64,000 nucleotides of DNA from Candidatus Magasanikiibacteriota bacterium (GTDB lineage: Bacteria > Patescibacteriota > Patescibacteriia > Magasanikbacterales > UBA922). Position numbers and translations under genes: made by a program. The DNA is taken from the NCBI GenBank assembly GCA_043825135.1, contig JBDRSF010000015.1:1559-65558 (forward strand), given 5' to 3'. The stretch's first letter is position 1, and every line of letters begins with the position of its first letter. Below the pieces are notes generated by a model. It was not told the origin of the DNA and searched no databases. It saw only the letters and a program-made list of their open reading frames with translations. Shown one piece after another: positions 3,362 through 61,660 of this stretch.

Positions 3362-3412
3362 CGAAAGATCCCTCGTCGCTCTTCGCTACGCTCGGACTCA
3401 CTCGGGATTGCG
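3362..3412. repeat. family C short palindromic element (GAAAGATCCCTCGTCG...CTCGGGATT), copy 1 of 3, immediately upstream of mutM
   Basis: The same ~55-nt element with conserved ends recurs at 45805-45861 (before metK) and 61593-61647 (before dnaK), each ending 10-14 nt before the start codon. Confidence 0.7.
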
Positions 3413-3421
3413 ATTGAAAAT

Positions 3422-8433: not shown

Positions 8434-8637
8434 GTGTCATTGCGAGGAGTGAGAATACGGAGCCTGTCCTGAACGAAGTGAGAGGAACGTGGCAATCCCA
8501 TTCATAGTATTAATAATTATGATTATATAATGTAAAAAAGATAACCCTAATTTGGAAGATTTATGAGAAAGGTTTTGAGCGTTGATGTTTGGGATTGCTT
8601 CGTCAGTCGATGCGAATCAACCTCCTCGCAATGACAC
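8434..8637. repeat. family A MITE-like element (TIR GTGTCATTGCGAGG / CCTCGCAATGACAC; internal GGGATTGCTTCG...GATGCGAATC)
   Basis: Terminal inverted repeats seen directly; related copies at 9259-9353 and 60265-60381. Confidence 0.7.
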
Positions 8638-9209: not shown

Positions 9210-9253
9210 TAAAATAAATTACCTACTGAGATATCTCAGTAGGTAATTTATTA
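9210..9253. repeat. ~44-nt perfect palindrome with 20-bp core CTACTGAGATATCTCAGTAG (copy 1 of 3); probable bidirectional terminator/operator
   Basis: AATAAATTACCTACTGAGATATCTCAGTAGGTAATTTATT; core recurs at 18108-18127 and 58298-58317. Confidence 0.7.
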
Positions 9254-9355: not shown

Positions 9356-11506
9356 TTAATCATACCTAATCACCCCACGTTCATTATTAACCCGATAATG
9401 CGCAATGGCTAGTTTTAATTTATGGTAATCAAATTTACCATTGAATCTGTTGTAAAGGATAGTTAACTTGTTTGGAATTCCGTTTGTTTTTATGTCTTCA
9501 AGAATTTTTTTCAAATCTGGTTTACTGATAAATTTGGCGATATCAATATCATAGCCTTTTTCATAAAGTTCTGCTAGGTGAGAATAAATAGTTTGTTCTT
9601 TTAGGTTTCTCTCTCGAGCAATTTGGGCGACGGGCATGCCTTTTTGATAATAAACATAAGTTAATTCTTGGGTGGTGCCTTGAGTTTTTTGACCCTCTTT
9701 GTCGCGGGCTTGTACAAAGTCAGCAATGGCAGTAATAAACAATTTACCATAAGTTTGAAATTTTTTGTCACCAACACCACTGATTTGTTTCATGGCTTTT
9801 TCAGTCATTGGTTTGTTATCAATCATCTGATTTAGGGTCGCATCATTAAATACTAGATAAGGTGGAATATTTTGTTTTTGTGCTAGACCTCTTCTTAGTT
9901 CACGCAAAATATCAAATAATTCTTCATCAGCAGTTTGGCGAGCTGATTTTGGTCGGGCTTCTTCGGTGCGTTCTTGTGCTCTTTGTTCAATAGATTGAAT
10001 AGTGACAAATTCAATTTTTTTGTTACCTAGCAAAACTTCTTTGCCAAGCGGAGTAATTTTTAAATTATAATTTTGATCATAGGCAATATCAACCAGGCCC
10101 ATGTTGAGCATTTGCAATAAATAATGTTGCCAGTCTGGTGGAGTAATATCTTTTCCAGCTCCGTAGGTTTTTATTTTATTAAAACCGCGTGTTAAAATTT
10201 CCTGCCGGTTTGATCCGCGCAAAATATCAATTAACAAATTAGTACCCACATTTTCATTTACCCGATAAATAGCTGACAAAGCTTTTTGTGCAATCTCTGT
10301 GCCATTCATTATTTCCGGAGGATTTTTGCAAACATCGCAGTTGCCACAATTATCTTCTTTATGTTCGCTAAAATATGATAATAAAATACGACGACGACAA
10401 ATAAGAGCATCGGCATATTGTTGCATGCGTTCTAGTTTAGCTAGTTGTAGAGTCGGCTGACCGCTTTCCATGGCAAATCTGCGTAGTAATATTACATCAG
10501 CCATGGTATAAAAAAGAATTGTTTCGCTTGGTAGACCGTCTCGTCCTGCACGCCCAATTTCTTGATAATAACCTTCTATGTTTTTTGGTAAATTATGATG
10601 AATGACAAAACGCACATTTGATTTATCAATTCCCATACCAAAAGCAATTGTTGCCACAATAATATTGGTTCGGCCGTGAATAAAATTTTCTTGAGTTTTT
10701 GATCTGGTGTGAGAATCAAGCCCAGCGTGATAATGTGAAGCTTTGATATTTTCTCGGTTTAAAGCCGAGGCAACTTTTTCGGTTTGCTTGCGACTAAGAC
10801 AATAAATAATGCCAGATTCATTTTTACGTTTTTTTATAAAATCAATAATAACATCCAAGCGTTTACGAGCCGGTAAAACTGTTAGGGATAAATTTGGTCG
10901 GTCAAATGAAGAGATGAAAATTTTGGGATTTCTTAAATGTAATTGGGTAACAATATCTTTGCGCGTAATTTTGTCAGCTGTGGCTGTGAGGGCGATGATA
11001 GGTGTTTTTGGAAACCTGTCTTTCAATTGTCCGAGCTGGGTATATTCCTGCCGAAAGTCATGACCCCAAGATGAAATACAATGTGCTTCATCAATGGCAA
11101 ATAAAGACACCTCAATTTGATTAAGTAAATTTTGAAAACTAGCCGTAACTAATTTTTCCGGTGATACATAGAGTAATTTTAATTCATTATTTAACAGCGC
11201 CTGTTCCACTTCGCGCGCTTCATCTTGTTCAAGTGAACTATTTAAAAAATTTGCCGCCACGCCATTTTCAATCAAGCCCTCAACCTGATCCTTCATCAAA
11301 GCAATAAGAGGGGATACTACGATTGTCACGCCCGGTAGAAGTGTGGCTGGTAATTGAAAACACAAAGACTTGCCCCCGCCGGTGGGCATCAAAACCAAAC
11401 AATCCTGACCTTCTAACACAGTCTCAACAATTTCTTTTTGATCAGACTGAAACTCATTAAAGCCAAAATTGTGTTTAAGTGATTTGTGGATTAGTTCTGG
11501 GGTCAT
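9356..11506 (-). CDS. recQ: ATP-dependent DNA helicase RecQ
   Basis: 716 aa; helicase motif I PTGGGKSLCFQLPA, motif II DEAHCISSWGHDFR, RQC zinc-binding Cys cluster, HRDC-like C-terminus. Confidence 0.9.
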   Translation of the reverse strand: MTPELIHKSLKHNFGFNEFQSDQKEIVETVLEGQDCLVLMPTGGGKSLCFQLPATLLPGVTIVVSPLIALMKDQVEGLIENGVAANFLNSSLEQDEAREVEQALLNNELKLLYVSPEKLVTASFQNLLNQIEVSLFAIDEAHCISSWGHDFRQEYTQLGQLKDRFPKTPIIALTATADKITRKDIVTQLHLRNPKIFISSFDRPNLSLTVLPARKRLDVIIDFIKKRKNESGIIYCLSRKQTEKVASALNRENIKASHYHAGLDSHTRSKTQENFIHGRTNIIVATIAFGMGIDKSNVRFVIHHNLPKNIEGYYQEIGRAGRDGLPSETILFYTMADVILLRRFAMESGQPTLQLAKLERMQQYADALICRRRILLSYFSEHKEDNCGNCDVCKNPPEIMNGTEIAQKALSAIYRVNENVGTNLLIDILRGSNRQEILTRGFNKIKTYGAGKDITPPDWQHYLLQMLNMGLVDIAYDQNYNLKITPLGKEVLLGNKKIEFVTIQSIEQRAQERTEEARPKSARQTADEELFDILRELRRGLAQKQNIPPYLVFNDATLNQMIDNKPMTEKAMKQISGVGDKKFQTYGKLFITAIADFVQARDKEGQKTQGTTQELTYVYYQKGMPVAQIARERNLKEQTIYSHLAELYEKGYDIDIAKFISKPDLKKILEDIKTNGIPNKLTILYNRFNGKFDYHKLKLAIAHYRVNNERGVIRYD

Positions 11507-12369: not shown

Positions 12370-13206
12370 ATGGAGGAATCAAAAAATAAACTCGTTATTT
12401 TTCAAGATAAACAAATTCGTCGTATTTGGTATAACGATGAATGGTTTTTTTCAGTCGTGGATATTGTAGAAGTGTTGACGGAAAGTCCTTATCCAAGGCA
12501 ATATTGGGAAAAAGTAAAGCAAAGGGAATTTATAGAACTTCAGTTGTCCCCAATTTGGTTACAACTGAAATTACCGAGTGCTGATGGCAAAAAATACGCT
12601 ACAGATTGTGTTAATACAGAAAATGCTTTTCGTATAATTCAATCTATTCCATCACCAAAAGCCGAACCTTTTAAGAGATGGTTGGCAATGGTAGGTAAGG
12701 AAAGACTTGATGAAATCGAAGATCCTGAATTAGCACAAGAACGAATGAAAAAATTGTATGAGCAAAAAGGGTATCCAAAAGATTGGGTTGATAAGCGATT
12801 GCGGGGAATAGCTATTCGTCAGAATTTGACTGACGAGTGGCAAGATCGAGGCATTACCAATCAAAAAGATTATGCAATTTTGACGGCAGAAATATCAAAA
12901 GCGACTTTTGGAATGACTCCCAGTGAGTATAAAAATTTTAAAAATATTTCTGACAAGTCAAAAGCAAATTTAAGAGATAATATGACAGATCTAGAGTTAA
13001 TTTTTACCATGTTAGGTGAAAAGGTTACGACAGAAATTTCTAAAAAAGAAAAACCAAAAACTATGCCGGCAAATAAAAAAGTGGCCAAACGAGGTGGTGG
13101 AGTGGCCGGCAAGGCGAGAAAAGATACAGAGGGGGAATTAGGCAGGAGTGTCATGAGTAAAAAGAATTATTTAAAAAGCAGAGTGAAAAACAAAAAATTG
13201 AAATAA
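12370..13206 (+). CDS. Bro-N domain protein, DinD-like (DNA-damage-inducible protein D family)
   Basis: N-terminal Bro-N-like IRRIWYNDEWFFSVVDIVEVL; C-terminal ELIFTMLGEKVTTEI...KKVAKRGGGVAGKARKD resembles E. coli DinD; paralog at 43212-44075; ORF-track start 12346 is GTG, ATG at 12370 preferred. Confidence 0.55.
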   Translation: MEESKNKLVIFQDKQIRRIWYNDEWFFSVVDIVEVLTESPYPRQYWEKVKQREFIELQLSPIWLQLKLPSADGKKYATDCVNTENAFRIIQSIPSPKAEPFKRWLAMVGKERLDEIEDPELAQERMKKLYEQKGYPKDWVDKRLRGIAIRQNLTDEWQDRGITNQKDYAILTAEISKATFGMTPSEYKNFKNISDKSKANLRDNMTDLELIFTMLGEKVTTEISKKEKPKTMPANKKVAKRGGGVAGKARKDTEGELGRSVMSKKNYLKSRVKNKKLK

Positions 13207-18093: not shown

Positions 18094-18129
18094 TGTTATA
18101 ATATGATCTACTGAGATATCTCAGTAGAT
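18094..18129 (+). promoter_or_regulatory. extended -10 (TGTTATAAT) followed 4 nt later by the 24-nt palindrome ATCTACTGAGATATCTCAGTAGAT
   Basis: Second copy of the CTACTGAGATATCTCAGTAG palindrome, here overlapping the predicted transcription start of the exonuclease gene. Confidence 0.5.
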
Positions 18130-19518: not shown

Positions 19519-20832
19519 ATGATAAAAAATACAACTAAAAAAAGGGAGACGATTTTTGATACCACTGATTTGGAAATAACTGAGGAAATAGAAAAAGCCT
19601 TGGAAATAATGGAGAATACACACGATACTGTGTATGTAACTGGAAAAGCGGGGACTGGGAAATCAACTTTACTAAAACATTTTTGTAATAATACGACAAA
19701 AAAAATCGCCATTGTGGCACCGACTGGGGTGGCGGCGATAAATGTGGGCGGAATGACAATTCATTCTTTTTTTAAATTTCCATTTGGAATTTTGGAAGAA
19801 GGTGATGTGGAGTTTTTGTTTTTCAAAAAGGAATTATTTGAAAATTTAGAAACATTAGTTATTGATGAAGTTTCAATGGTACGGGCAGATTTGATGAATG
19901 CGATTGATGTGTCACTGCGAAAAAATACTGGTAATAAAAATCTACCATTTGGCGGAGTGCAGGTGATTATGTTTGGTGATCTTTATCAGTTGCCACCAGT
20001 TGTGACTAGTATTGAGGAAAGGGATTATTTGCAAGAAAATTATGGTGGTTTGTATTTTTTTAATGCGCCAGTTTTTAAAGAAGTAAAACTTAGAAAAATT
20101 GATTTGAATAAAATCTTTCGTCAAAAGAATGATGAGATTTTTGTAAATGTTTTAAATAATATTAGAGAGTGTCGGGTTACTCAAACTGATTTGATGGCAT
20201 TAAATCAGCGGGTAAAAATTTATGATGAAAAATCAGGGCCAGCAATTGTGTTGGCAACGACAAATAATATTGTGGATTCCATAAATGAATCTGAGTTGAA
20301 AAAGATAAGGGAGAGAGAGTTTATATTTAAATATAATGCAAGCGGAGATTTTGATATAAAAAAATCCCCAGCTGAATTAAAATTAAAATTAAAAATTGGC
20401 GCGCAAGTAATGATGATAAAAAATGATAATCAAGTACCTAGGCGTTGGGCCAATGGTACCTTGGGGACAGTGGTCGGATTAAAAAAAGATAAAATTATTA
20501 TAAATATTGGCCGAGAGAATCATGCAATTGAAAAAGCGACTTGGGATGATTTTGAATATGAATATGATCGTGAACAGGAGACTGTGGAACGGTTTTCCAA
20601 AGGTTCGTTTATGCAATACCCAATCAAGTTAGCTTGGGCAGTGACAATCCACAAAAGCCAGGGCAAAACCTTTGAGCGAGTGATTATTGATCTTGGTCGC
20701 GGTGCTTTTGCTCATGGTCAAACCTATGTGGCGCTTAGTCGGTGTACTACGCTGAAGGAAATTTATATGAAAAAGCCAGTGCGATTATCTGATATTATTT
20801 TGGATCAGGAAGTGGTGGATTTTCATGCTTAG
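19519..20832 (+). CDS. Pif1/RecD-family (SF1B) DNA helicase
   Basis: Walker A TGKAGTGKSTLLK, Walker B LVIDEVSMV, FGDLYQLPPV, C-terminal TIHKSQGKTFERVIIDL and YVALSRCTTL (UvrD_C_2-like). Confidence 0.8.
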   Translation: MIKNTTKKRETIFDTTDLEITEEIEKALEIMENTHDTVYVTGKAGTGKSTLLKHFCNNTTKKIAIVAPTGVAAINVGGMTIHSFFKFPFGILEEGDVEFLFFKKELFENLETLVIDEVSMVRADLMNAIDVSLRKNTGNKNLPFGGVQVIMFGDLYQLPPVVTSIEERDYLQENYGGLYFFNAPVFKEVKLRKIDLNKIFRQKNDEIFVNVLNNIRECRVTQTDLMALNQRVKIYDEKSGPAIVLATTNNIVDSINESELKKIREREFIFKYNASGDFDIKKSPAELKLKLKIGAQVMMIKNDNQVPRRWANGTLGTVVGLKKDKIIINIGRENHAIEKATWDDFEYEYDREQETVERFSKGSFMQYPIKLAWAVTIHKSQGKTFERVIIDLGRGAFAHGQTYVALSRCTTLKEIYMKKPVRLSDIILDQEVVDFHA

Positions 20833-20852: not shown

Positions 20853-21185
20853 ATGCGTATCTGGGACATTCATCCAAAATATTTATGTAGGAAGCATTTG
20901 CTAGCTGAACATCGTGAATTGCATGGGCTGTGGAATATTTTGACTAAACATAAAGCCAAGGGTGGTTATTCACGTCATCCTGAGACTTTGCGCTGGGTCG
21001 GCAAGACGCGAGCGCTTTTTGACAGGCACGAGGCGCTTACCAAGGAGTTTACCAGGCGTGGTTACAATCATCACACTCCACTTGATAAGAAATTAGCCAA
21101 AGGCAAAACCAAACAAGACGTTTTTGTTAATACTGTTGCCGAACAAAAAATTATTCTAAAAAATAAATCTTGTGATTGTTTTTAG
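20853..21185 (+). CDS. pyrimidine-dimer DNA glycosylase (T4 endonuclease V/DenV family)
   Basis: MRIWDIHPKYLCRKHLLAEHRELHGLW parallels T4 endoV LSELADQHLMAEHRELPRVF. Confidence 0.65.
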   Translation: MRIWDIHPKYLCRKHLLAEHRELHGLWNILTKHKAKGGYSRHPETLRWVGKTRALFDRHEALTKEFTRRGYNHHTPLDKKLAKGKTKQDVFVNTVAEQKIILKNKSCDCF

Positions 21186-25176: not shown

Positions 25177-27573
25177 ATGGCTATCAACGAACTAAAAAAA
25201 TATCAAGAAGATGCGATTGAGAAAATCATTGTTAAAACCAAGGATATTCTTAAGCTTAGCGAGACACTTAGTTGCGATGAAAAGGTTATAATTTTCAAGG
25301 CTCCGACGGGAAGTGGAAAAACTTTTACAATGGCGGAATATATCTACCAACTTATAAAAGATTTTGAAGACAAAAGAGAGTCGGAGATGTGTTTCCTTTG
25401 GATTAGTATTGGTAAGGGAGAATTACATAAACAAAGTTATCGGGCAATAAAGAAAATTTTTGGTCCTTTTCCAAGCGTATGTTTGTTGGAGGAAAAATAT
25501 TTCGGTTCGCGAAGAACGATTGAAGATAACAATGTAGTTGTGATTAATTGGGAAAAATTAAGAGCCAAAGATAATCAAACAGGAGAATGGAAAAATATTT
25601 TAATGAAAGACAAGGAGACGGTTAATTTTAGGGAATTGATAGCTAACACTAAAAAAAGCGGTTCAAAAATAATAATGATTATTGACGAAAGTCATTCCGG
25701 AGCGACAAGTGAAAGAGCGATTGAGATTCGTGAAATTATTGACGCTGATTTAACGATAGAAATGAGTGCGACACCTGTTTTGATTGAGGGCAAACATGAT
25801 AGTCGGTTAGTTGAAGTGCCCGCAAGCGAAGTGATTGATCAAGGAATGATAAAAAAAGAAATTATTGTAAATGAAAATATAGATGAGATTGCCGATGATG
25901 ATATAACTTCGCAGGATTTAGTTTTGGAGGCTAGTTATCAAAAAAGATTAGAACTCGCAAAAATGTATAAGAAAGAAAATGCAGACGTTAATCCATTGGT
26001 TTTAATTCAAATTCCGACAGGAGAACAGGGGAATGAAAAAAGAAAAAGAATTGAGAAATTTTTAGCTGAAAAGGACATAGCGTTGGATAATGGAAAGTTG
26101 GCAGTATGGTTGAGCGAAGAAAAAGTAAATTTAGAAGTTTTGGAAAATAATGTTAGTGAGGTGGAATTTTTAATCTTTAAACAAGCCATTGATACTGGCT
26201 GGGATTGTCCTCGAGCACAAATTTTGGTGAAATTTAGGGAATCTCATAGCGAAACTTTTGAATTGCAAACAGTTGGGAGAATTTTAAGAATGGCTGAAGC
26301 TAAACATTATGAAAATGATAATTTGAATAAAGCATTTATTTATACAAATATCAATCCTGATAATCTTGGTTTTAAAGGGGGAGATCTGACAATTAAAAAT
26401 GCTATAAAATCAATTCCAATGAAACGTTGGGATATATATAAGAATTTAAAATTGCGGTCTTATTATCGTAATAGGGTTGATTTTGGAGATTTGACGCTTA
26501 ATTTTCCCGAAACATTAGAAGATGTTTTTTGCGATAAATTTGAAATAGAAAAAAATAAATTTGATTTTAATTTTGCCGAAAAAAATAAGAAAAAACTAGG
26601 CAAAATAATCAACCTTGATGGTTTAGAAAAAAAGGAAGAAATAATCCTAAATAATAAAATTGATGCTAAATTATTTGATGGGTTGGATATGGAAGATATG
26701 ATCGCGAGTGATAATTTTCAGGCATATTTATCCGAAGACGACAAGGACGCGCTTTTTGAAAATTTATTTAAAAGAAATCTTAATGGTTTTGCCTACAAAA
26801 GATCAATTTCTATTTTTATGGGAGCAGTATTTAGTTGGTTTAAAAAATATTTGGGCATAACTAGGGCTGATTATGGAATAATTTATATTCAAAATATTAT
26901 ATTAAATAATATTGGTGTGTTTGATATATTGCTTGAAGATTCAGTTATTAGATATAAGCCAGTAAAGGATAAAGAAATAGAAAAGAAAATTAAAGAAATA
27001 GAACAATGGGATGAAGGTTGGGAAGTTGTGGAAAGTAGGAATTTTAATCCGGAGACCCACAAGCCTTTTAAGTATATTTTGTCGTTATACAAGAGACCTG
27101 TTGAAAATAGAGCCTATCTTAATTTTGATAGCGAGATTGAAAAAGAATTTATTGATTTTCTTGAAGAGCATAAAGAAAAGATTTTATGGTGGTGGCAGAA
27201 TGGCAACGAACACATGGCTTTGAATTTTGGCATTAAATATAATGGAGGATCAACTTTTCAGCCGGATTTTTTGGTAATGTTTAAGAATGGTAAGCTCGGC
27301 GTATTTGATACAAAAGCGAGTGGGCAGAGAGAAGATGAAAACAAATTAAAAGCAGAAGCGTTGCAGAAATATATTAAAGAAGAAAACAAAAGAAAGAAAA
27401 AAGAAATTATTTTTGGTGGGTTGGTGATTAAAGAGGGTGAACATTTTAGAATCAACAGTGATGAAAAATATATACCATTTAAATTATCAACAGAAGCTAG
27501 AGAAAAAAAGGCAAAATATAAAACAAGTTCTGTCTCTGCAAAGCAAGAAGGATGGAAGTATTTTGAATTGTAA
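25177..27573 (+). CDS. res: Type III restriction enzyme Res subunit (helicase plus endonuclease)
   Basis: Walker A APTGSGKTFT, DEAH-like MIIDESHSG, helicase motif VI QTVGRILR; C-terminal PD-(D/E)xK-like FQPDFLVMFKNGKLGVFDTKASG. Confidence 0.85.
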   Translation: MAINELKKYQEDAIEKIIVKTKDILKLSETLSCDEKVIIFKAPTGSGKTFTMAEYIYQLIKDFEDKRESEMCFLWISIGKGELHKQSYRAIKKIFGPFPSVCLLEEKYFGSRRTIEDNNVVVINWEKLRAKDNQTGEWKNILMKDKETVNFRELIANTKKSGSKIIMIIDESHSGATSERAIEIREIIDADLTIEMSATPVLIEGKHDSRLVEVPASEVIDQGMIKKEIIVNENIDEIADDDITSQDLVLEASYQKRLELAKMYKKENADVNPLVLIQIPTGEQGNEKRKRIEKFLAEKDIALDNGKLAVWLSEEKVNLEVLENNVSEVEFLIFKQAIDTGWDCPRAQILVKFRESHSETFELQTVGRILRMAEAKHYENDNLNKAFIYTNINPDNLGFKGGDLTIKNAIKSIPMKRWDIYKNLKLRSYYRNRVDFGDLTLNFPETLEDVFCDKFEIEKNKFDFNFAEKNKKKLGKIINLDGLEKKEEIILNNKIDAKLFDGLDMEDMIASDNFQAYLSEDDKDALFENLFKRNLNGFAYKRSISIFMGAVFSWFKKYLGITRADYGIIYIQNIILNNIGVFDILLEDSVIRYKPVKDKEIEKKIKEIEQWDEGWEVVESRNFNPETHKPFKYILSLYKRPVENRAYLNFDSEIEKEFIDFLEEHKEKILWWWQNGNEHMALNFGIKYNGGSTFQPDFLVMFKNGKLGVFDTKASGQREDENKLKAEALQKYIKEENKRKKKEIIFGGLVIKEGEHFRINSDEKYIPFKLSTEAREKKAKYKTSSVSAKQEGWKYFEL

Positions 27574-27604
27574 AATAATCATACTATTTTCAATACATCA
27601 TATT

Positions 27605-28213
27605 ATGTCGAACATATATCAATTCAAAATCACCCTTCAAGATAGTAAGCCACCAATTTGGCGACGGATTCAGGTATCGGAGAACTATACATTCTGGGAT
27701 TTGCATGTAGCCATAAATGAAGCCATGGGCTGGTATGATTGTCATTTGCATGCTTTTGTTAGAAGAAATCTCAAAACACTGAGAGAAGAATTGCGTATTC
27801 ATACAGATTTGGCAGACGAACCATGGGATTTGTCTGATGAAGTCAAGGAGGAAAGAGAAACGTTGATTAAAGATGTTTTAACCTTAGAAAAGCCACGGAT
27901 TAAGTATGATTATGATTTTGGAGATAGTTGGCAACATTATGTGGTGTTGGAAAAGATTTTGCCAGCAGAAAAGGGTGTAGAATATCCTAGGTGTGTGGCT
28001 GGCAAGCGGGCTTGCCCACCAGAAGATGTGGGCGCTATTTGGGGGTATTATGATTTTGTAAAGATTATGAATAATCCTCAGCATTCAGAATATAAAGAAA
28101 TGGTCGAATGGATTGGCGAAGATTCTTGGGATCCTGATGAATTTAATCCAGATGAGGTGTTTTTTGATGATCCCGAAGAAATTTGGGATGAGATGCAGAA
28201 GTCTTCTTTTTAG
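27605..28213 (+). CDS. plasmid pRiA4b ORF-3 family protein
   Basis: IYQFKITLQDSKPPIWRRIQV...FWDLHVAINEAMGWYDCHLHAF matches the pRiA4b ORF-3 domain hallmark; start at internal Met. Confidence 0.7.
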   Translation: MSNIYQFKITLQDSKPPIWRRIQVSENYTFWDLHVAINEAMGWYDCHLHAFVRRNLKTLREELRIHTDLADEPWDLSDEVKEERETLIKDVLTLEKPRIKYDYDFGDSWQHYVVLEKILPAEKGVEYPRCVAGKRACPPEDVGAIWGYYDFVKIMNNPQHSEYKEMVEWIGEDSWDPDEFNPDEVFFDDPEEIWDEMQKSSF

Positions 28214-28222
28214 ATAATCAAT

Positions 28223-28259
28223 ATCTATACATATATTTATACATGTATCTATATATAAA
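28223..28259 (+). promoter_or_regulatory. 37-bp cis element ATCTATACATATATTTATACATGTATCTATATATAAA (copy 1), ends 3 nt before the AbrB-like gene start
   Basis: Identical 37-mer recurs at 29641-29677 immediately upstream of the 29683 operon; contains dyad ATACATGTAT. Confidence 0.6.
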
Positions 28260-28262
28260 CAT

Positions 28263-28436
28263 ATGCGAAAAATAATAAATAGACAAATAAGAAAAATATT
28301 TAAATCTGGACCAAGTTATGTTATCACTTTACCAGTTGAATTAGTCCAAGAGCTCAAGTGGAAAGAAAGACAAAAATTGGAATTGGTGATTGATGAGAAG
28401 AATCAGACGATTAAAATTAGTGATTGGAAGGAATAA
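28263..28436 (+). CDS. AbrB/MazE/SpoVT-family DNA-binding protein (57 aa)
   Basis: SGPSYVITLPVELVQELKWKERQKLELVIDEKNQTIKI is a swapped-hairpin AbrB-like domain; below ORF-track cutoff; terminator 28453-28478 follows. Confidence 0.6.
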   Translation: MRKIINRQIRKIFKSGPSYVITLPVELVQELKWKERQKLELVIDEKNQTIKISDWKE

Positions 28437-28452
28437 ATTATGAAAACAGAAA

Positions 28453-28478
28453 ACAAGCCCCTCTTCGGGCTTGTTTTT
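28453..28478 (+). terminator. rho-independent terminator
   Basis: ACAAGCCCCTCTTCGGGCTTGTTTTT. Confidence 0.6.
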
Positions 28479-28485
28479 ATACTTG

Positions 28486-28560
28486 TCAATAGTAACAAGT
28501 TATTAACATATTTTTGTCAATAAACTTGACAAGTTTTTTACGCTAGTATATACTATAAGT
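28486..28560 (+). promoter_or_regulatory. promoter (TTGACA-17-TATATACT) embedded in inverted repeats CTTGTCAA/TTGACAAG
   Basis: ACTTGTCAATAGTAACAAGT ... TTGTCAATAAACTTGACAAGT; likely autoregulatory operator for the HTH antitoxin. Confidence 0.45.
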
Positions 28561-28581
28561 AGCTAAATTAACATAAATATT

Positions 28582-29301
28582 ATGTCTAAAAAACAGCTTG
28601 ACTTACGTGTTTTGCGTAAACAATTTAATATGTCGCAGGAAGATTTGGCGCGCCGACTGGGGATGTCTCGCCCTACTTTGATGAAGGTAGAAAAAGGAGA
28701 AAGAGTCCTCTCTCTTGCTGAAAGAGATAAAGTGAGAGATATTTTTGATTTGGTAAAAGATACAGAGTCAGTTGATACTAACATACGAATTAGTATTCCA
28801 CAGAAAAATTTGGATAAGTTTAAGCAGGTTTTGTTGTATATTTTAGAACGTGTTGGTAATAAACCCAATGTTGGCATGACTGTATTATATAAACTTTTGT
28901 ATTTTATTGATTTTGATTATTATGAAAAATATGAAGAACAGTTGATGGGGTTGACTTATATCAAAAATCATCATGGCCCCACACCAAAAGAATTTATTAA
29001 AGTTGTAGAGCAAATGAAACAGGTTGGTGAATTGGAAGAGATAAAAAGCAAGTATTTTACTTATGAGCAAAAAAAGTTTTTACCAGTAATGGAAAATGAT
29101 TTATCCCTTATTTCTGGTCGTGAGTTGGAACATATAGATTGGGAATTAGGGAGGCTGGCTAATTTGAGCGCTAAGCAAATATCAGATTTGTCACATATAG
29201 ATACTCCGTGGGCAGTAACTGATGATGGTGGGCAGATAGATTATGAATTTGTTTTTTACCGTCCGGAAGAAACATCAGTGAGGGAATATGAATCGCTTTG
29301 A
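28582..29301 (+). CDS. HTH (Xre)-Panacea(DUF4065/SocA-like) domain antitoxin
   Basis: N-terminal Xre-type HTH (FNMSQEDLARRLGMSRPTLMKVEKGER); C-terminal TVLYKLLYFIDFDYYEKYEEQLMGLTYIKNHHGPTPKEF matches Panacea-domain antitoxins. Confidence 0.6.
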   Translation: MSKKQLDLRVLRKQFNMSQEDLARRLGMSRPTLMKVEKGERVLSLAERDKVRDIFDLVKDTESVDTNIRISIPQKNLDKFKQVLLYILERVGNKPNVGMTVLYKLLYFIDFDYYEKYEEQLMGLTYIKNHHGPTPKEFIKVVEQMKQVGELEEIKSKYFTYEQKKFLPVMENDLSLISGRELEHIDWELGRLANLSAKQISDLSHIDTPWAVTDDGGQIDYEFVFYRPEETSVREYESL

Positions 29302-29635
29302 TTATTCTCCACAATTTAAAAAAGATTTAAAGCGTCTGACAAAAAAATACAATAGTCTTCCTAAAGATTTGCGTCGATTGGAGATTTTTCTTGAACAATA
29401 TCCTAATGGTATTGGTGCTTCATTTGCAGTTTTGCATCACCGGCCATCTGTTTGTATAATTAAAGCTCGTTTGGCTTGTGAGTCATTAAGAGCAAGGTCT
29501 TTGCGTGTTATTTATGCTTACAAAGAGAGTGAAAAAAGAATAGAATTTATTGAATTATATTTTAAGGGTGATAAATTAAGGGAGGATGAATTACGGATTA
29601 GGGACTATTTAAATGATTTAGATAATCTTAGTTAG
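29288..29635 (+). CDS. putative type II toxin, RelE/ParE-superfamily-like
   Basis: Overlaps antitoxin by 14 nt; RVIYAYKESEKRIEFIELYFKGD resembles the conserved C-terminal RelE/ParE strand; assignment tentative. Confidence 0.4.
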   Translation: MNRFDYSPQFKKDLKRLTKKYNSLPKDLRRLEIFLEQYPNGIGASFAVLHHRPSVCIIKARLACESLRARSLRVIYAYKESEKRIEFIELYFKGDKLREDELRIRDYLNDLDNLS

Positions 29636-29640
29636 AACAA

Positions 29641-29677
29641 TATCTATACATATATTTATACATGTATCTATATATAA
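29641..29677 (+). promoter_or_regulatory. 37-bp cis element (copy 2) immediately upstream of the 29683-32648 operon
   Basis: Identical to 28223-28259. Confidence 0.6.
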
Positions 29678-29682
29678 AAAAT

Positions 29683-30621
29683 ATGCAAAATACTTTAAAA
29701 AAGTTATTGGAGACAATTAAAAATGGATCCCCCACAGAAGTTAAAAGCGCCCAAAAAGAAGTGGAAAAATTTTGGCATAATGTATATATACCTGAGCGTG
29801 AGAAGGGTCGGGAGGCTTTTAAAATTTTTCTAGAAGAACTAAAGAATTTTGAAAGTATAAAAGACATTGATCATCAATGCTACTTTATCAACACTCTTAA
29901 GTGTCCACTTTATGCCATAGGTGAAGAATATTTTGGGAAGTGGGCGGATTTTTTCTTGCATTATATTCAACACCCATCTGGTAAAATTCGTCAGGCTGTT
30001 ATCAGTGCTGTGGATTATTTGTTAATGGACATAGCAGAAGGACTTGACTCGTACGACAAAAAAGTGGTATATGACAAACACAACAAAAATATGAATTATT
30101 TTTGTAATTTTGTTTGTATTGTTGAAAATTTATTAGCAAAATATGATGAGCCAAGGTTTAGGAAATTTAAATATGTTAGCAGTATGCCAGCATCGGTTTA
30201 CAAGAGTTTGCAAATATTGATAACTCAAAAATTATTTAGAAGCGAGTATTATGAAAAATTATATGAGGAATTTTTAAAAAATATATCCAATGAACAGGAC
30301 AAAAGACGTGTAAAAATTAACAAAAAAGATTTAGCTATTAAACGACGGGAGATTGAGCAAAAAATGCGGGCTGCTATAATTTATTATGAATTAGAAGATG
30401 TTTTGAGTTTTGATGAACTTAAAAGAATCGTAAAAACAGAACAAATCAATAAAGATAATAATCCAATTACCCCCATTGGGAAAAAATTATTAGACAATAT
30501 AGACAATATGGAAGAAGCACAGAAAGTGTTAAATATCATTGTTGAGATGTGGAATCATTTTCCCCATGATTATTTAAATGGTTTGTCTCCGCGTGAGATG
30601 GGTGATAAAATTTATAATTAA
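29683..30621 (+). CDS. hypothetical alpha-helical protein
   Basis: ~313 aa, start at internal ATG after the repeat (coordinate +/-1); no recognisable motif. Confidence 0.45.
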   Translation: MQNTLKKLLETIKNGSPTEVKSAQKEVEKFWHNVYIPEREKGREAFKIFLEELKNFESIKDIDHQCYFINTLKCPLYAIGEEYFGKWADFFLHYIQHPSGKIRQAVISAVDYLLMDIAEGLDSYDKKVVYDKHNKNMNYFCNFVCIVENLLAKYDEPRFRKFKYVSSMPASVYKSLQILITQKLFRSEYYEKLYEEFLKNISNEQDKRRVKINKKDLAIKRREIEQKMRAAIIYYELEDVLSFDELKRIVKTEQINKDNNPITPIGKKLLDNIDNMEEAQKVLNIIVEMWNHFPHDYLNGLSPREMGDKIYN

Positions 30622-30654
30622 AATTATGGCATGATGCTGTGGAGAAATTGTTTT

Positions 30655-31062
30655 ATGTCTATTCAGATTCCAAAAAGTGAAATAAAAATAACTTTTGCGC
30701 GGTCATCTGGTGCGGGTGGGCAAAATGTTAATAAGACTTCAACCAAAGCGATTGTACACTGGTCAGTTGGGAAGTCACAGGTTTTGACTACCGAAGAAAA
30801 AGCTCGGGTGCGATTAAAATTGGCCAATAGAATAAATAATAATGATGAGGTGGTTATATTAGCAGAAGAAGAACGATCACAACCTCAGAATCGTATATCG
30901 GCGGTTTCACGATTGCAAGCACTGGTAAAGCGCGCCTTACATATTCCAAAAAAACGCCGGCCGACTCGACCAACCAAGGCTTCTAAAATAAAACGGTTGG
31001 AATCTAAAAAAAGACAGTCTTTATTGAAAGCGGGAAGACGGAGTATTGAGAAAGTGGTATAA
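30655..31062 (+). CDS. arfB: alternative ribosome-rescue factor ArfB (peptidyl-tRNA hydrolase, GGQ)
   Basis: ITFARSSGAGGQNVNKTSTKA (GGQ motif) and basic C-terminal tail KRRPTRPTKASKIKRLESKKR. Confidence 0.8.
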   Translation: MSIQIPKSEIKITFARSSGAGGQNVNKTSTKAIVHWSVGKSQVLTTEEKARVRLKLANRINNNDEVVILAEEERSQPQNRISAVSRLQALVKRALHIPKKRRPTRPTKASKIKRLESKKRQSLLKAGRRSIEKVV

Positions 31063-31082
31063 TATAATTATTAACAATTTTT

Positions 31083-31817
31083 ATGTCTAAGCCGATTTTT
31101 GATCTTAAAAAAATAAAATTCTCCATTGATCCTGGTACTTATGAGCGAGCGGTTGATTTGTATGAAAAAAAGAAAATCAAAGAGTTTAGCGATGATGATT
31201 ATGTTGGTTATTCTGCTATTGTCCAAGGCACGCAAGCTTATGAAGTATATGTACATGCTCGTTCTTTTGATTTAGGTAATTGTGATTGTTATTTAGGTCA
31301 AAATAATAAATTGTGTAAACATATGGTGGCAGTGGCGATTTATGCAGTTATGGACGGAAAACCACTTAAAGAAGAAGATAAAAAAAATGAAACAGAAGTT
31401 TCTTGTAGCGGTAAAATAGGAGAATTAAGTAAAGAAAGACTTAAAACAGTAAAAGCTGATATTTCAGGAGCTATGCGATATATTAAGTCGTATAACGGCC
31501 CTTCGCGTCTTTGGTTTGCCTATCAAGATTCGCTGTCAGAAGGGTGTGCTCGGTTATCAGCTATAATATCTGAATTACCAGTGAGCTTGCAGACAGCTAA
31601 ATTATTGATAAATTTACTTTTACGCTTAGATAAAAAATTGTGTAATGCGGTGGATGACTCAGATGGTACAGTTGGTGGTTTTATGATGGAAGTGGTTGGT
31701 GTAATAAAAGAATATATTGAGATTGATCCGGTTTGTGCCGAGTCAATTACATTGTTGGTAGGCAAAGAAACTTGCTTTGAATGGGGTGATCCGTTGTGGA
31801 ATTTGATTGAAGAATAA
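31083..31817 (+). CDS. SWIM zinc-finger domain protein
   Basis: CDCYLGQNNKLCKHMVAV fits SWIM CxCxnCxH. Confidence 0.55.
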   Translation: MSKPIFDLKKIKFSIDPGTYERAVDLYEKKKIKEFSDDDYVGYSAIVQGTQAYEVYVHARSFDLGNCDCYLGQNNKLCKHMVAVAIYAVMDGKPLKEEDKKNETEVSCSGKIGELSKERLKTVKADISGAMRYIKSYNGPSRLWFAYQDSLSEGCARLSAIISELPVSLQTAKLLINLLLRLDKKLCNAVDDSDGTVGGFMMEVVGVIKEYIEIDPVCAESITLLVGKETCFEWGDPLWNLIEE

Positions 31818-31859
31818 TTTATGTTATAATAGACGAAATTAATTTTAATTATAAATATT

Positions 31860-32648
31860 ATGACTAAGAAAAAAACTACGAGTAAAGTATTATCTGTCAA
31901 AAAAAAGGATGTTGGGTCAAAAGTCAGTTTATTGAATGGGTCAGAGGCCATTCATACTCAATTACAGCAGTGGGCTCATACTGGCAATGAAGAATCTTTA
32001 AAAAAATTGGAAAATTTTATTGCTAAAGAAGAAAATAAAGATCTGCGTTTTTATGCTACCTTGGCTTATGGTGAGGCGCAGTATTTTTACTATGGTCCAC
32101 AAAATGAAAAGGAAGAAAGAGAATTTGAATTAGCACGCCTGATAAAAAAAGAAGATGAATATTTGTGGAAATTAATAAATGAGTCTGAGCGATTAGAATG
32201 TAAAATTGGTAAACAAAAAATAGAAGAAGCAGTCTTCAAGCGTTTACTGAAAAAACAAAATGAAAAGATGAAAACAGCTTGGCAACATCGTTATATAGGG
32301 GATGTTATGGGGTTGGAAAGACGATTACAAAAAGTAAAAGAAGATATTGAATATCAAATTGCTTGGCTAAAAGAAGCTAGGGCTATGATAACAACCAAGC
32401 GTTACCAAAACATTCCTGATGATGTTTTTGAACATATGCATACTGATTTTGGAGAAGGTGCTTGCTGGACTGATGATATGAGTTGTTGTGGTTCAAATTA
32501 CTGTGATTGCGATGATGATTGTTGTGACTGTGACGAAGAAGATTGTTGCTGTCCTCATTGTGGATCAGATGATGCAGTGGAAATAGATGATGAAATATAT
32601 CCAGTTGGTAATTATGAAGAATTTAGTATTGACGATATCCCTTTTTAA
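31860..32648 (+). CDS. hypothetical protein with acidic Cys-rich C-terminus
   Basis: C-terminus CWTDDMSCCGSNYCDCDDDCCDCDEEDCCCPHCGSDD, a metal-binding-like cluster. Confidence 0.45.
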   Translation: MTKKKTTSKVLSVKKKDVGSKVSLLNGSEAIHTQLQQWAHTGNEESLKKLENFIAKEENKDLRFYATLAYGEAQYFYYGPQNEKEEREFELARLIKKEDEYLWKLINESERLECKIGKQKIEEAVFKRLLKKQNEKMKTAWQHRYIGDVMGLERRLQKVKEDIEYQIAWLKEARAMITTKRYQNIPDDVFEHMHTDFGEGACWTDDMSCCGSNYCDCDDDCCDCDEEDCCCPHCGSDDAVEIDDEIYPVGNYEEFSIDDIPF

Positions 32649-32917
32649 AGCATTTTTATCTGTTTAAAATTAAAACAAAGTTATCCACACTAAAATTTAA
32701 TTATTAAAAATTTTGTGTTATAATATTTTTATAATTTTTTTAATTAAAATATATGACAAAAAAAGGTTGAGGTATTACTGCAATAGTTGTATTAGCAGTT
32801 TTTTTATTTATAATTTTCACCTACTCGTTTGTTTACGATCGGCTGGAATTAGTCAGCGAAGGTCTGGCCAGTCCCAAGTTTCCATTTAGTAAATATTCGC
32901 AGGAAGAATTAAATACC

Positions 32918-33262
32918 ATGTTTCCGCAGTATGTAAATGAAAACGTAGAAACAACACAGACGCCAGAACAAACTCACGCGATTTTTTTGAATAATCTAAA
33001 AGCTGGCAATATTGACGAGGCTGTGGAGTGTTGTTTTATGAAAGGGGATTGGGAAAAGATGAAAGAGGGTTTAAAAAAAGTGGAAGATCAGGGTGAATTG
33101 CAGATCATGATTAAAGATTTAGATACAGAAATTACAAAAGATTTGGATTTAGGCAATAAGGCAACATATACTTATTCGGTTGAGAGGAATGGAGAGTCAT
33201 TAGGTACGGGTATAGAATTTATAAAAAATTCAGCTGGGGTTTGGTTGATTGAGAGTTTGTAA
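32918..33262 (+). CDS. hypothetical protein; frame stays open upstream to an in-frame TGA at 32768, preceded by ATG 32753
   Basis: Upstream in-frame segment GITAIVVLAVFLFIIFTYSFVYDRLELVSEG encodes a TM helix; MTKKG-TGA-GITAIVV... Confidence 0.45.
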   Translation: MFPQYVNENVETTQTPEQTHAIFLNNLKAGNIDEAVECCFMKGDWEKMKEGLKKVEDQGELQIMIKDLDTEITKDLDLGNKATYTYSVERNGESLGTGIEFIKNSAGVWLIESL

Positions 33263-33265
33263 TTT

Positions 33266-33745
33266 GACCTCCCCTTACGAAGGGGAGGAACACCTGATTC
33301 GCATCAGGGGGAGGGGTTTTTCTATGGAAAAAATATTTAATCAGTCTAAGCACAAAGATCTAAGAAAGATATTGAGAGAAGATTGTACTAAAAGTGAAGC
33401 GGTGTTGTGGAAATATTTAAAAGGAAAACAAATGGGATATAGATTCCGTCGTCAACACGGTATAGGTAGATATATAGTAGATTTTTATTGTCCGAAATTA
33501 AAGCTGATTATAGAAGTGGATGGTTATACGCATATAGATCATGATCAATATATATACGATATGGAGAGAGAAAATTATTTGCGTAGTTTAGGTCTGGTGG
33601 TTAAGAGATATACAGGTGAACAGATTTTTAAACATATTAGGGAAGTCTATCTTGATTTGCAGAATATTTGTGAAGAGTTGAGTAAGGGTTAATGCAAAAA
33701 CCCCCTAGCCACTTCGTGTGCATTCCCCCTTGAAAAGGGGGAACC
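33266..33745. mobile_element. family D MITE-like element carrying a DUF559 endonuclease gene
   Basis: Left end GACCTCCCCTTACGAAGGGGAGGAACAC-CTGATTCGCATCAGGGGG; right end CCCCCTAGCC...GCATTCCCCCTTGAAAAGGGGGAACC; same ends as the cargo-less element at 18928-19096. Confidence 0.55.
33324..33692 (+). CDS. DUF559 (Vsr/MutH-like) endonuclease-domain protein
   Basis: RFRRQHGIGRYIVDFYCPKLKLIIEVDGYTH...RENYLRSLGLVVKRY matches the DUF559 signature; start at ATG after the terminal repeat. Confidence 0.7.
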   Translation: MEKIFNQSKHKDLRKILREDCTKSEAVLWKYLKGKQMGYRFRRQHGIGRYIVDFYCPKLKLIIEVDGYTHIDHDQYIYDMERENYLRSLGLVVKRYTGEQIFKHIREVYLDLQNICEELSKG

Positions 33746-45804: not shown

Positions 45805-45861
45805 GAAAGATCCCTCGTCGTCCAGATTTTTTGCGAAAAAAATCTTTCCTCGCTCGGGATT
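45805..45861. repeat. family C element, copy 2, immediately upstream of metK
   Basis: GAAAGATCCCTCGTCG-TCCAGATTTTTTGCGAAAAAAATCTTTCC-TCGCTCGGGATT, ends 12 nt before the ATG. Confidence 0.7.
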
Positions 45862-45872
45862 AACCAAACCAT

Positions 45873-52549: not shown

Positions 52550-52730
52550 CTGTCATTCCGACCGAAACCCCGATGAAATACGGGGTGGAGTGGAGGAATC
52601 CCTTTTCTTTACACTATATTTAGTATTAAATAAAATTTTCCTTGATGCATTTGTTGGTGCATTAAAAAGGGATCCCTGCGCCACCGCTAAAGCTTTAGCG
52701 ACACGCGGTCGACTACGCTCGGGATGACAA
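52550..52730. repeat. family B MITE-like element (second full copy)
   Basis: CCTGTCATTCCGACCGAAACCCCGATGAAATACGGGGTGGAGTGGAGGAATCCCTTTTC...GGGATCCCTGCGCCACCGCTAAAGCTTTAGCGACACGCGGTCGACTACGCTCGGGATGACAAC. Confidence 0.75.
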
Positions 52731-58295: not shown

Positions 58296-58317
58296 ATCTA
58301 CTGAAATATCTCAGTAG
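58296..58317. repeat. third copy of the CTACTGAGATATCTCAGTAG palindrome (one mismatch)
   Basis: ATCTACTGAAATATCTCAGTAGGT, preceded by a -10-like TGGTATGGT. Confidence 0.6.
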
Positions 58318-61592: not shown

Positions 61593-61647
61593 GAAAGATC
61601 CCTCGTCGTTCACCTGCGCTCACGCTTGGTGACCTCGCTCGGGATTA
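61593..61647. repeat. family C element, copy 3, immediately upstream of dnaK
   Basis: GAAAGATCCCTCGTCG-TTCACCTGCGCTCACGCTTGGTGACCTCG-CTCGGGATT ends 13 nt before the ATG. Confidence 0.7.
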
Positions 61648-61660
61648 ACGAAAAAATTCT

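Follow-up and report, generated by a model that had tools for sequence, protein, structure and literature searches.

The stretch analysed here, referred to as the window, is a 64-kb piece of a 67-kb contig from a metagenome-assembled genome (MAG) of the uncultured Candidatus Magasanikbacteria (Patescibacteria/Candidate Phyla Radiation, CPR), and the subject of this study is a short sequence element that stands in identical form in front of two of its genes, one encoding a 57-aa AbrB-like protein and the other a 312-aa protein. An identical 37-mer ending 3–5 nt before both start codons had been described in the initial annotation, and this was borne out: the 37-mer occurs exactly twice in the window (28223-28259 and 29642-29678), the exact repeat is in fact 41 nt long (CAATATCTATACATATATTTATACATGTATCTATATATAAA), its copies lie 1419 nt apart, and 3 nt (CAT) separate the end of copy 1 from the ATG at 28263 of the 57-aa open reading frame (ORF), compared with 4 nt (AAAT) between copy 2 and the ATG at 29683 of the 312-aa ORF. 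The features on which the argument turns are the following:

28209..28218, + strand: left flank of copy 1, TTTAGATAAT (10 nt), overlapping the TAG stop codon of the PRiA4_ORF3 gene
28219..28259, + strand: element copy 1, 41 nt, exact; units from 28223, 28235 and 28247, with boxes ATCTATAC, ATTTATAC and ATCTATAT
28263..28436, + strand: 57-aa protein of the AbrB/MazE/SpoVT fold, DNA-binding domain alone (PF04014)
28450..28477, no strand assigned: GC-rich hairpin AAAACAAGCCCCTCTTCGGGCTTGTTTT followed by a T-run, likely bidirectional terminator
29638..29678, + strand: element copy 2, 41 nt, exact; units from 29642, 29654 and 29666
29683..30621, + strand: 312-aa protein, all-helical, no family match

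Two exact copies of such a sequence are beyond chance expectation, as no 37-mer repeat arose in 100 dinucleotide-preserving shuffles. With up to 3 mismatches allowed, the window contains no third copy of the 37-mer, and a profile derived from eight elements, with which we scanned the window and the related loci L001 and L005-L036, returned no further copy; the objection that the 37-mer is a common AT-rich repeat upstream of many unrelated genes thus did not hold for this material. A 26-nt core of the element has no exact match in GTDB representative genomes, a collection that does not contain the source species, and three matches in JGI metagenomes, all of them in eukaryote-like TA/CA simple-sequence DNA and for this reason taken as chance. 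Degenerate three-box patterns were searched in viral contigs as well: the G-type pattern (box types are defined below) gave no matches, and the A-type pattern gave >120; the ones looked at turned out to be (ATCTAT)n or tandem repeats of 12 nt with no relation to the element, so that this pattern was set aside as too permissive.

Each copy is composed of three 12-nt units (ATCTATACATAT / ATTTATACATGT / ATCTATATATAA), and each unit starts with an 8-bp box of the consensus RTMTAKAY that is followed by 4 nt. As this consensus equals its own reverse complement, each box is a pseudo-palindrome. The dyad ATACATGTAT, to which attention had been drawn before, is indeed present in both copies (28240-28249 and 29659-29668), but it is missing from the elements of the related loci L009 and L005 and is a by-product of the junction between units 2 and 3 in this genome; what is conserved is the set of three 8-bp boxes in 12-nt phase rather than the dyad. 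Unit 3 further holds a -10-like TATATA whose end lies 5-8 nt before both ATGs, which leaves no space for a Shine-Dalgarno (SD) sequence. The geometry of a leaderless promoter, with a -10-like hexamer close to the start codon and no SD, is therefore found at both copies. Judged by a crude regular expression applied to the window genes, 34 of 56 lack an SD-like motif, and at several genes TATAAT lies 6-9 nt before the ATG, e.g. at 25177 (GGTATAATATAAATATATG) and 47683 (GGTATAATATAAGTATATG). This suggests that leaderless mRNAs may be widespread in this Magasanikbacteria genome, and a leaderless or near-leaderless start at both element copies is plausible and would not be unusual in the organism. 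A TATAAT-like box just 3-9 nt before the ATG is also seen at many window genes (e.g. 2138, 5463, 25177, 43212, 47683 and 57180). Two other readings of the element were considered and rejected. The ATG at 29662, inside copy 2, could serve as an alternative start of the 312-aa gene, but the L005 orthologue and database entries begin at the equivalent of 29683, and the same ATG in copy 1 meets a stop after 5 codons. A structured RNA found no backing either, with no Rfam match at E <= 1 over 27000-33500 and an RNA fold of the region that was not significant relative to shuffled sequence (z-score -1.57).

The 57-aa protein passes the family-membership threshold of PF04014 (30.5 bits at a cut-off of 24.7, E = 3.6e-7), with the domain covering residues 12-52 of 57; family members are 55-59 aa long, and the closest solved sequences are AbrB-family Sso7c4 chains (E = 0.05). 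Its homologues divide into subfamilies, and the N-terminal half of the window protein (MRKIINRQIRKIFKSGPSYVITLPVELVQEL) assigns it to what we term the N-type ('MRKIINR'-type, 55-59 aa). We considered a type II antitoxin (MazE/VapB/Phd-like) and discarded this identity for three reasons. Directly downstream of the window AbrB gene there is no cognate toxin, but a terminator hairpin and a 5-nt remnant of a toxin start instead; the 57-aa protein has no C-terminal toxin-binding extension, its domain reaching residue 52 of 57; and the N-type genes of L012 and L028 are solo. Conserved housekeeping genes surround the N-type gene in L012, L028, and L010 (HisRS/ArgRS ... AbrB - VF530 - GlyRS), and no toxin gene adjoins it there, while a Fic gene is located upstream of the N-type gene in L010 and a GNAT gene follows it in L009. 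The 57-aa protein thus looks like a small transcription factor, and the likely terminator at 28450-28477 would make its gene monocistronic.

Judged by its identities, the window AbrB gene is a chimera of the N-type and M-type paralogue families. Over the first ~105 nt it shares 81% identity with the L009 N-type gene and 57% with M-type genes, whereas over the last ~80 nt it matches the M-type genes of L005 and L008 (the latter belonging to the same MAG as the window) at 90-93% and N-type genes at 58%. The crossover lies near codon 32 (ELKWKE), and the N-type N-terminal half of the chimeric protein has been kept together with the N-type element. The M-type gene of L005 is a genuine antitoxin gene of a toxin–antitoxin (TA) pair and overlaps the 114-aa gene after it; in the window, this 114-aa toxin is cut to its first five bases (ATGAA at 28441), which are joined to the terminator ahead of the Panacea TA module described below.

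Evidence on the function of the element comes from other genomes, as a homologous three-unit element is found directly upstream of the gene or operon at every N-type locus that was fetched. Five further Patescibacteria genomes carry it at an N-type AbrB gene, represented by the loci L009 (GCA_900089805.1), L010, L012, L013 (Parcubacteria BM507), and L028. The L009 element (ATCTATATACAT ATCTATATAAGT ATCTATATATAA aaat ATG) is identical to that of the window at 35 of 41 positions without a gap; the others read GTCTATACATGT GTATAGACATAT GTATAGACTAAA aat ATG (L012), GTCTATACATAT GTATAGACACAT GTATAGACATTT at ATG (L013), and GTCTATATATAT GTATAGACATAT GTCTAGATTAAA at ATG (L028), such that 2-4 nt remain between the end of the element and the N-type ATG at these four loci. 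In L010/L011, the element precedes a Fic-AbrB pair, i.e. an operon. Box 1 starts 38-40 nt before the ATG at the regulator loci of all six genomes (window, L009, L010, L012, L013, and L028), the kind of fixed position upstream of orthologous regulators that one looks for in an operator. This comparison ties the element specifically to AbrB-like genes of this type. A sister subfamily, P0087 (MRRKLQNRNIRKIFKRG...), has three AATAGCTATT boxes with 12-nt spacing at 8 nt from the ATG, a layout read in five loci (among them L029, L030, L032, and L034), and M-type and other AbrB subfamilies have other palindromes just upstream of their starts. These layouts suggest that the box changes together with the protein N-terminus between the N-type and P0087 subfamilies. 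A finer correspondence is seen among the N-type proteins themselves: those with Pro17 (window, L009) pair with ATCTATAY (A-type) boxes and those with Asn17 (L010, L012, L013, and L028) with GTCTATAC/GTATAGAC (G-type) boxes. Residue 17 aligns with Arg11 of Sso7c4, a DNA-contacting arginine (PMC5222340), and we take the pairing as a hint that protein and operator may be matched to each other. A conserved position and architecture, combined with a box that appears to vary with the DNA-binding half of the protein, is the pattern expected of an autoregulatory operator.

The element also stands before non-AbrB genes in three genomes, namely the 312-aa gene (window and L005) and prfB (L025). In L005/L006/L007 (Patescibacteria GCA_018830025.1), a diverged version, ATCCATACACAT GTCTATATAT ATCTATATATAA aaaat ATG, lies upstream of a 91%-identical 312-aa gene. 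The module is native to AbrB genes, and certain lineages have gained it at other genes too, which is consistent with the growth of a regulon. In L025 (GCA_027858235.1), a G-type three-box element at 11453-11488 ends right at the ATG of prfB, which encodes RF2 (368 aa) with no frameshift site needed. Taken with the gene for the ribosome-rescue factor ArfB, which in the window is located behind copy 2, the prfB element may point to a connection with translation termination and ribosome rescue, although this could be a coincidence.

Taken together, we favour with moderate confidence the reading that the 41-nt repeat is the promoter-operator of a small AbrB family, and that the AbrB-like protein may repress its own gene and the 312-aa gene, possibly including ArfB. 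The module would belong to a family of tiny (55-59 aa) DNA-binding proteins with the AbrB/SpoVT fold that occur in Patescibacteria and for the most part stand alone. In the model that we propose, each 8-bp box accommodates one symmetric AbrB dimer, such that dimers of the AbrB-like protein would fill the three phased boxes over the -10 region and the putative transcription start site of a leaderless promoter; with the third unit overlapping the -10-like TATATA, the mRNA would probably be leaderless or nearly so. The bound protein would repress its own promoter, and the identical copy 2 would place the 312-aa gene, possibly with ArfB behind it, under the same repression. The regulatory logic, an autoregulator's operator that is shared with a second promoter, is conventional.

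Several points weigh against this interpretation. The covariation of box and protein is based on few independent lineages, and the element is AT-rich and of low complexity, with degenerate versions of the pattern matching unrelated simple repeats elsewhere. The middle unit of the L005 element has a length of 10 instead of 12 nt. The element is absent from distant homologues of the 312-aa gene (L021, L022, and L025), which means that its link to this gene is young, and an N-type AbrB gene in the genomes of L005 or L025 could not be shown, as the matches carry no genome names. The window AbrB gene is itself a recombinant, and its product might not be functional. Finally, each copy lies no more than 10 nt from the stop codon of an upstream gene on the same strand with no terminator in between, so that read-through transcription is possible.

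We regard it as rather unlikely that the element acts simply as a strong and compact (leaderless) promoter, or is bound by a different, unlinked regulator, and was duplicated by recombination without being under AbrB control. The resemblance of its 3' part to the -10-to-ATG region of SD-less genes, such as those at 25177 and 47683, would be explained in this way, as would its presence before prfB without an AbrB gene within 6 kb. However, conservation of the three phased boxes upstream of the -10 region is specific to N-type AbrB genes, where six genomes show it, and the sister AbrB subfamily changes the box sequence but keeps the architecture. Moreover, a general promoter would be expected at many genes, and the 64-kb window contains just two copies.

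The identity of the two copies has to be seen against the mosaic structure of the region. In L009 and L005, the backbone reads YgjP - RNase T - PIF1 - (Pyr_excise) - ArfB; Pyr_excise and ArfB are adjacent in L009, and in L005, which lacks Pyr_excise, PIF1 and ArfB are adjacent. Relative to this backbone, the window has ~9.5 kb of extra, island-like DNA between Pyr_excise (20853-21185) and ArfB (30655), comprising RadC, AntA, a type III-like methylase/helicase pair (N6/N4 methylase of 722 aa and ResIII helicase of 798 aa), PRiA4_ORF3, the AbrB gene, the Panacea TA pair, and the 312-aa gene. What flanks copy 1 on the left (AAGTCTT.C.TTTTAGATAAT) and copy 2 on the right (AAAATATGCAAAAT...) is found in L005 within a single uninterrupted locus (9940-10003), in which AAGTCTTACATTTTAGATAAT, a single diverged element, and AAAATATGCAAAAT follow each other as in an 'empty site'; the TTTAGATAAT flank of copy 1 is likewise homologous to the left flank of this single element. 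The AbrB and TA block therefore lies inside a former single junction of element and 312-aa gene, with the element duplicated. TTTAGATAAT recurs to the left of copy 2, at 29617-29626, where an 11-nt insertion that is absent at copy 1, CTTAGTTAGAA, separates it from the 41-mer and provides the stop codon of the upstream toxin gene. Since the element has diverged considerably between the window and L005 although the coding DNA next to it is 92.6% identical, the two window copies must have become 100% identical recently. A recent recombination between element copies or a gene conversion accounts for this best, rather than selection on every base; complete identity is by itself uninformative on selection, yet it gives both genes literally the same control region.

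This history raises the question of whether the repeats are nothing but scars (attL/attR-like, or from a homology-driven duplication) left when a 1.4-kb cassette with AbrB and the Panacea TA pair inserted into the 312-aa gene's promoter, and are devoid of regulatory meaning. The single contiguous L005 locus is what an insertion with duplication predicts, the region is a mosaic with respect to both L005 and L009, and a Logan contig assembled at k=31 breaks within the repeat. We nevertheless consider this improbable: the genes between 14 and 34 kb include no recombinase, transposase, or integrase, a search of plasmid and phage collections with the cassette gave no match, and the element occurs in single copy at AbrB genes elsewhere, with a fixed distance to the ATG that indicates a gene-proximal control region. 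An insertion accounts for the origin of the identity, yet is compatible with a regulatory function of the element. That the contig was mis-joined at the 41-nt repeat (A-R-B-R-C versus A-R-C plus another context) is very improbable, even though the source is a metagenome-assembled genome and the independent k=31 assembly of SRR26275509 is interrupted precisely at this point, its contig L001 starting inside the repeat, because such a break is expected for any true repeat of at least 31 nt, 41 nt are far below read length and the left flanks differ by an 11-nt indel, so that reads would resolve the copies, and both contexts must exist in the sample anyway.

The remaining features between and behind the two copies are:

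28481..28554, + strand: promoter of the TA module, TTGACA-17-TATACT, overlapped by inverted repeats; conserved in L005
28582..29301, + strand: antitoxin with HTH_3 and SocA_Panacea domain matches, 239 aa
29288..29635, + strand: putative toxin, 115 aa, weak RelE/StbE match
30655..31062, + strand: ArfB, alternative ribosome-rescue peptidyl-tRNA hydrolase (NF006718, 132 bits)
31083..31817, + strand: SWIM-domain gene with its own TATAAT box upstream
31860..32648, + strand: Cys-rich gene with its own TATAAT box upstream

The gene identities proposed in the initial annotation (AbrB-like, TA module, ArfB, SWIM, Cys-rich) all hold. In line with its view that the TA module keeps a palindromic operator of its own, the inverted repeats ACTTGTCAA (28481-28489) and TTGACAAGT (28526-28534) lie across the module's own promoter; in L005, the hairpin AAAACAAGCCCCTCTTCGGGCTTGTTTT sits before the Panacea TA promoter as well. 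The putative toxin gene departs from its L005 orthologue in the last ~16 codons, which lack homology to it and include the second TTTAGATAAT as well as the 11-nt insert. For the 312-aa protein, a confident AlphaFold2 (AF2) model with a mean predicted local distance difference test (pLDDT) of 85 gave weak matches to HEAT/ARM-like solenoids (E > 0.006, template modelling (TM) score <= 0.35). Homologues of the 312-aa gene repeatedly adjoin PIF1-family helicase genes (L021, L022-L024; in the window, such a gene lies at 19519-20832), and many members of the family have N-terminal TPR fusions.

How far transcription from copy 2 might extend is a related issue. No plus-strand terminator was predicted between 29683 and 32648, and co-transcription of the 312-aa gene with ArfB is plausible. 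The four-gene operon that had been suggested for this segment (29683-32648) is unproven: ArfB is part of the backbone, where in relatives it comes after Pif1/Pyr_excise, and a TATAAT box precedes both the SWIM gene and the Cys-rich gene, which makes a common transcript of all four uncertain.

Some further features of the window and its relatives were noted in passing. A perfect 20-bp palindrome, CTACTGAGATATCTCAGTAG, occurs at 9223-9242, 18108-18127, and 58298-58317 in the window, and also in L005 (11248 and 15838), L008 (1599), and L009 (4370). At promoters, it begins ~5 nt past the TATAAT box, and it is found upstream of RNase T/ExoX (window and L005), YgjP (L009), and a 'MKTRK'-type AbrB paralogue (L005 and L008). 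It may be either the operator of this paralogue, in parallel to the element studied here, or a 5'-terminal RNA hairpin. Downstream of the Cys-rich gene, an ORF at 32753-33262 (MTKKG, stop, GITAIVVLAVFLFIIF...) has an in-frame TGA at 32768, five codons in and just before a predicted membrane anchor, and continues in frame into a 114-aa ORF at 32918. An alternative genetic code with TGA as a sense codon was dismissed, as 7 of 57 window genes end in TGA, and the TGA looks like a local oddity (pseudogene, sequencing error, or local recoding). There are also GC-rich intergenic repeat families with ...GATCCCTCGTCG...CGCTCGGGAT(G/T)AC and TCATTGCGAG...GCAATCCCA hairpins, located in the window at, e.g., 3377-3420, 41040-41090, 45830-45870, 52690-52730, and 61610-61650, also at 8437, 9262, and 60267, and in L005 at 9780-9890 and 12815-12880; they often end 10-25 nt before start codons.

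To our knowledge, experiments have so far revealed next to nothing about how CPR/Patescibacteria regulate transcription, and our literature search found no paper linking AbrB-type proteins with Patescibacteria. The locus yields a pair that lends itself to testing, namely a protein of 57 aa and a DNA site of 36-41 bp in which three boxes are defined, along with natural variants (A-type, G-type, and the AATAGCTATT subfamily) and candidate target genes. It may also exemplify an operator-promoter module that was copied by recombination inside a defence/TA island and has wired a new gene into an existing circuit. As a tentative and, in its full breadth, doubtful extension, Patescibacteria might harbour widespread minimal (55-60 aa) stand-alone AbrB-fold factors, each subfamily using a particular operator of three boxes in 12-bp phase that is joined to a leaderless promoter, and this cassette might spread by recombination and recruit genes into small regulons, including ones for translation termination and ribosome rescue (prfB in L025; the 312-aa gene and ArfB in the window). 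N-type genes adjoin aminoacyl-tRNA synthetase genes in L010, L012, and L028. If this were true, these would be among the first defined transcription factor-operator-regulon systems in CPR.

Among known systems, the closest analogies are with B. subtilis AbrB, an autoregulating transition-state regulator, and with MazE. E. coli MazE autoregulates at the mazEF promoter (PMC4333400). The window protein belongs to the same fold family (PF04014 above the cut-off) and by analogy would share the N-terminal swapped-hairpin domain and dimeric DNA binding, as well as the use of repeated or palindromic sites over the gene's own promoter for negative autoregulation. In contrast to MazE and AbrB, it consists of the DNA-binding domain alone (57 aa) without a toxin-binding tail, no cognate toxin follows in the window, L012, or L028, and the putative operator is built from three 8-bp pseudo-palindromes in strict 12-bp phasing at 0-5 nt from the ATG. 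Sso7c4 of Sulfolobus/Saccharolobus (PDB 2L66, 5ITJ) has been described as a chromatin-like protein, binding and bending DNA with little sequence specificity (PMC3159460, PMC5222340). It is likewise a stand-alone SpoVT-AbrB-fold protein without a partner domain (homodimer of ~54 aa), but its arginine pair R11/R22 is not conserved here, where Pro17 and Val28 occupy the aligned positions, and the subfamily-specific upstream boxes of the present family would imply sequence-specific binding. MraZ, a ~150-aa two-domain AbrB-like oligomer, binds tandem direct repeats in the mra promoter, autoregulates, and controls a cell-division regulon. Three phased repeats beside the regulator's own promoter would be a feature common to both, whereas the phasing of the MraZ repeats is ~10 bp and their sequence is different, with no sequence relationship past the fold. 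The locus finally resembles cases of promoter/operator capture in genomic islands, in that an identical module stands before an unrelated gene in a mosaic region rich in restriction-modification (RM) and TA genes. Here, however, the captured module is the conserved control region of one regulator family, and because it belongs to a specific regulator, its duplication has probably enlarged the regulon of that regulator.

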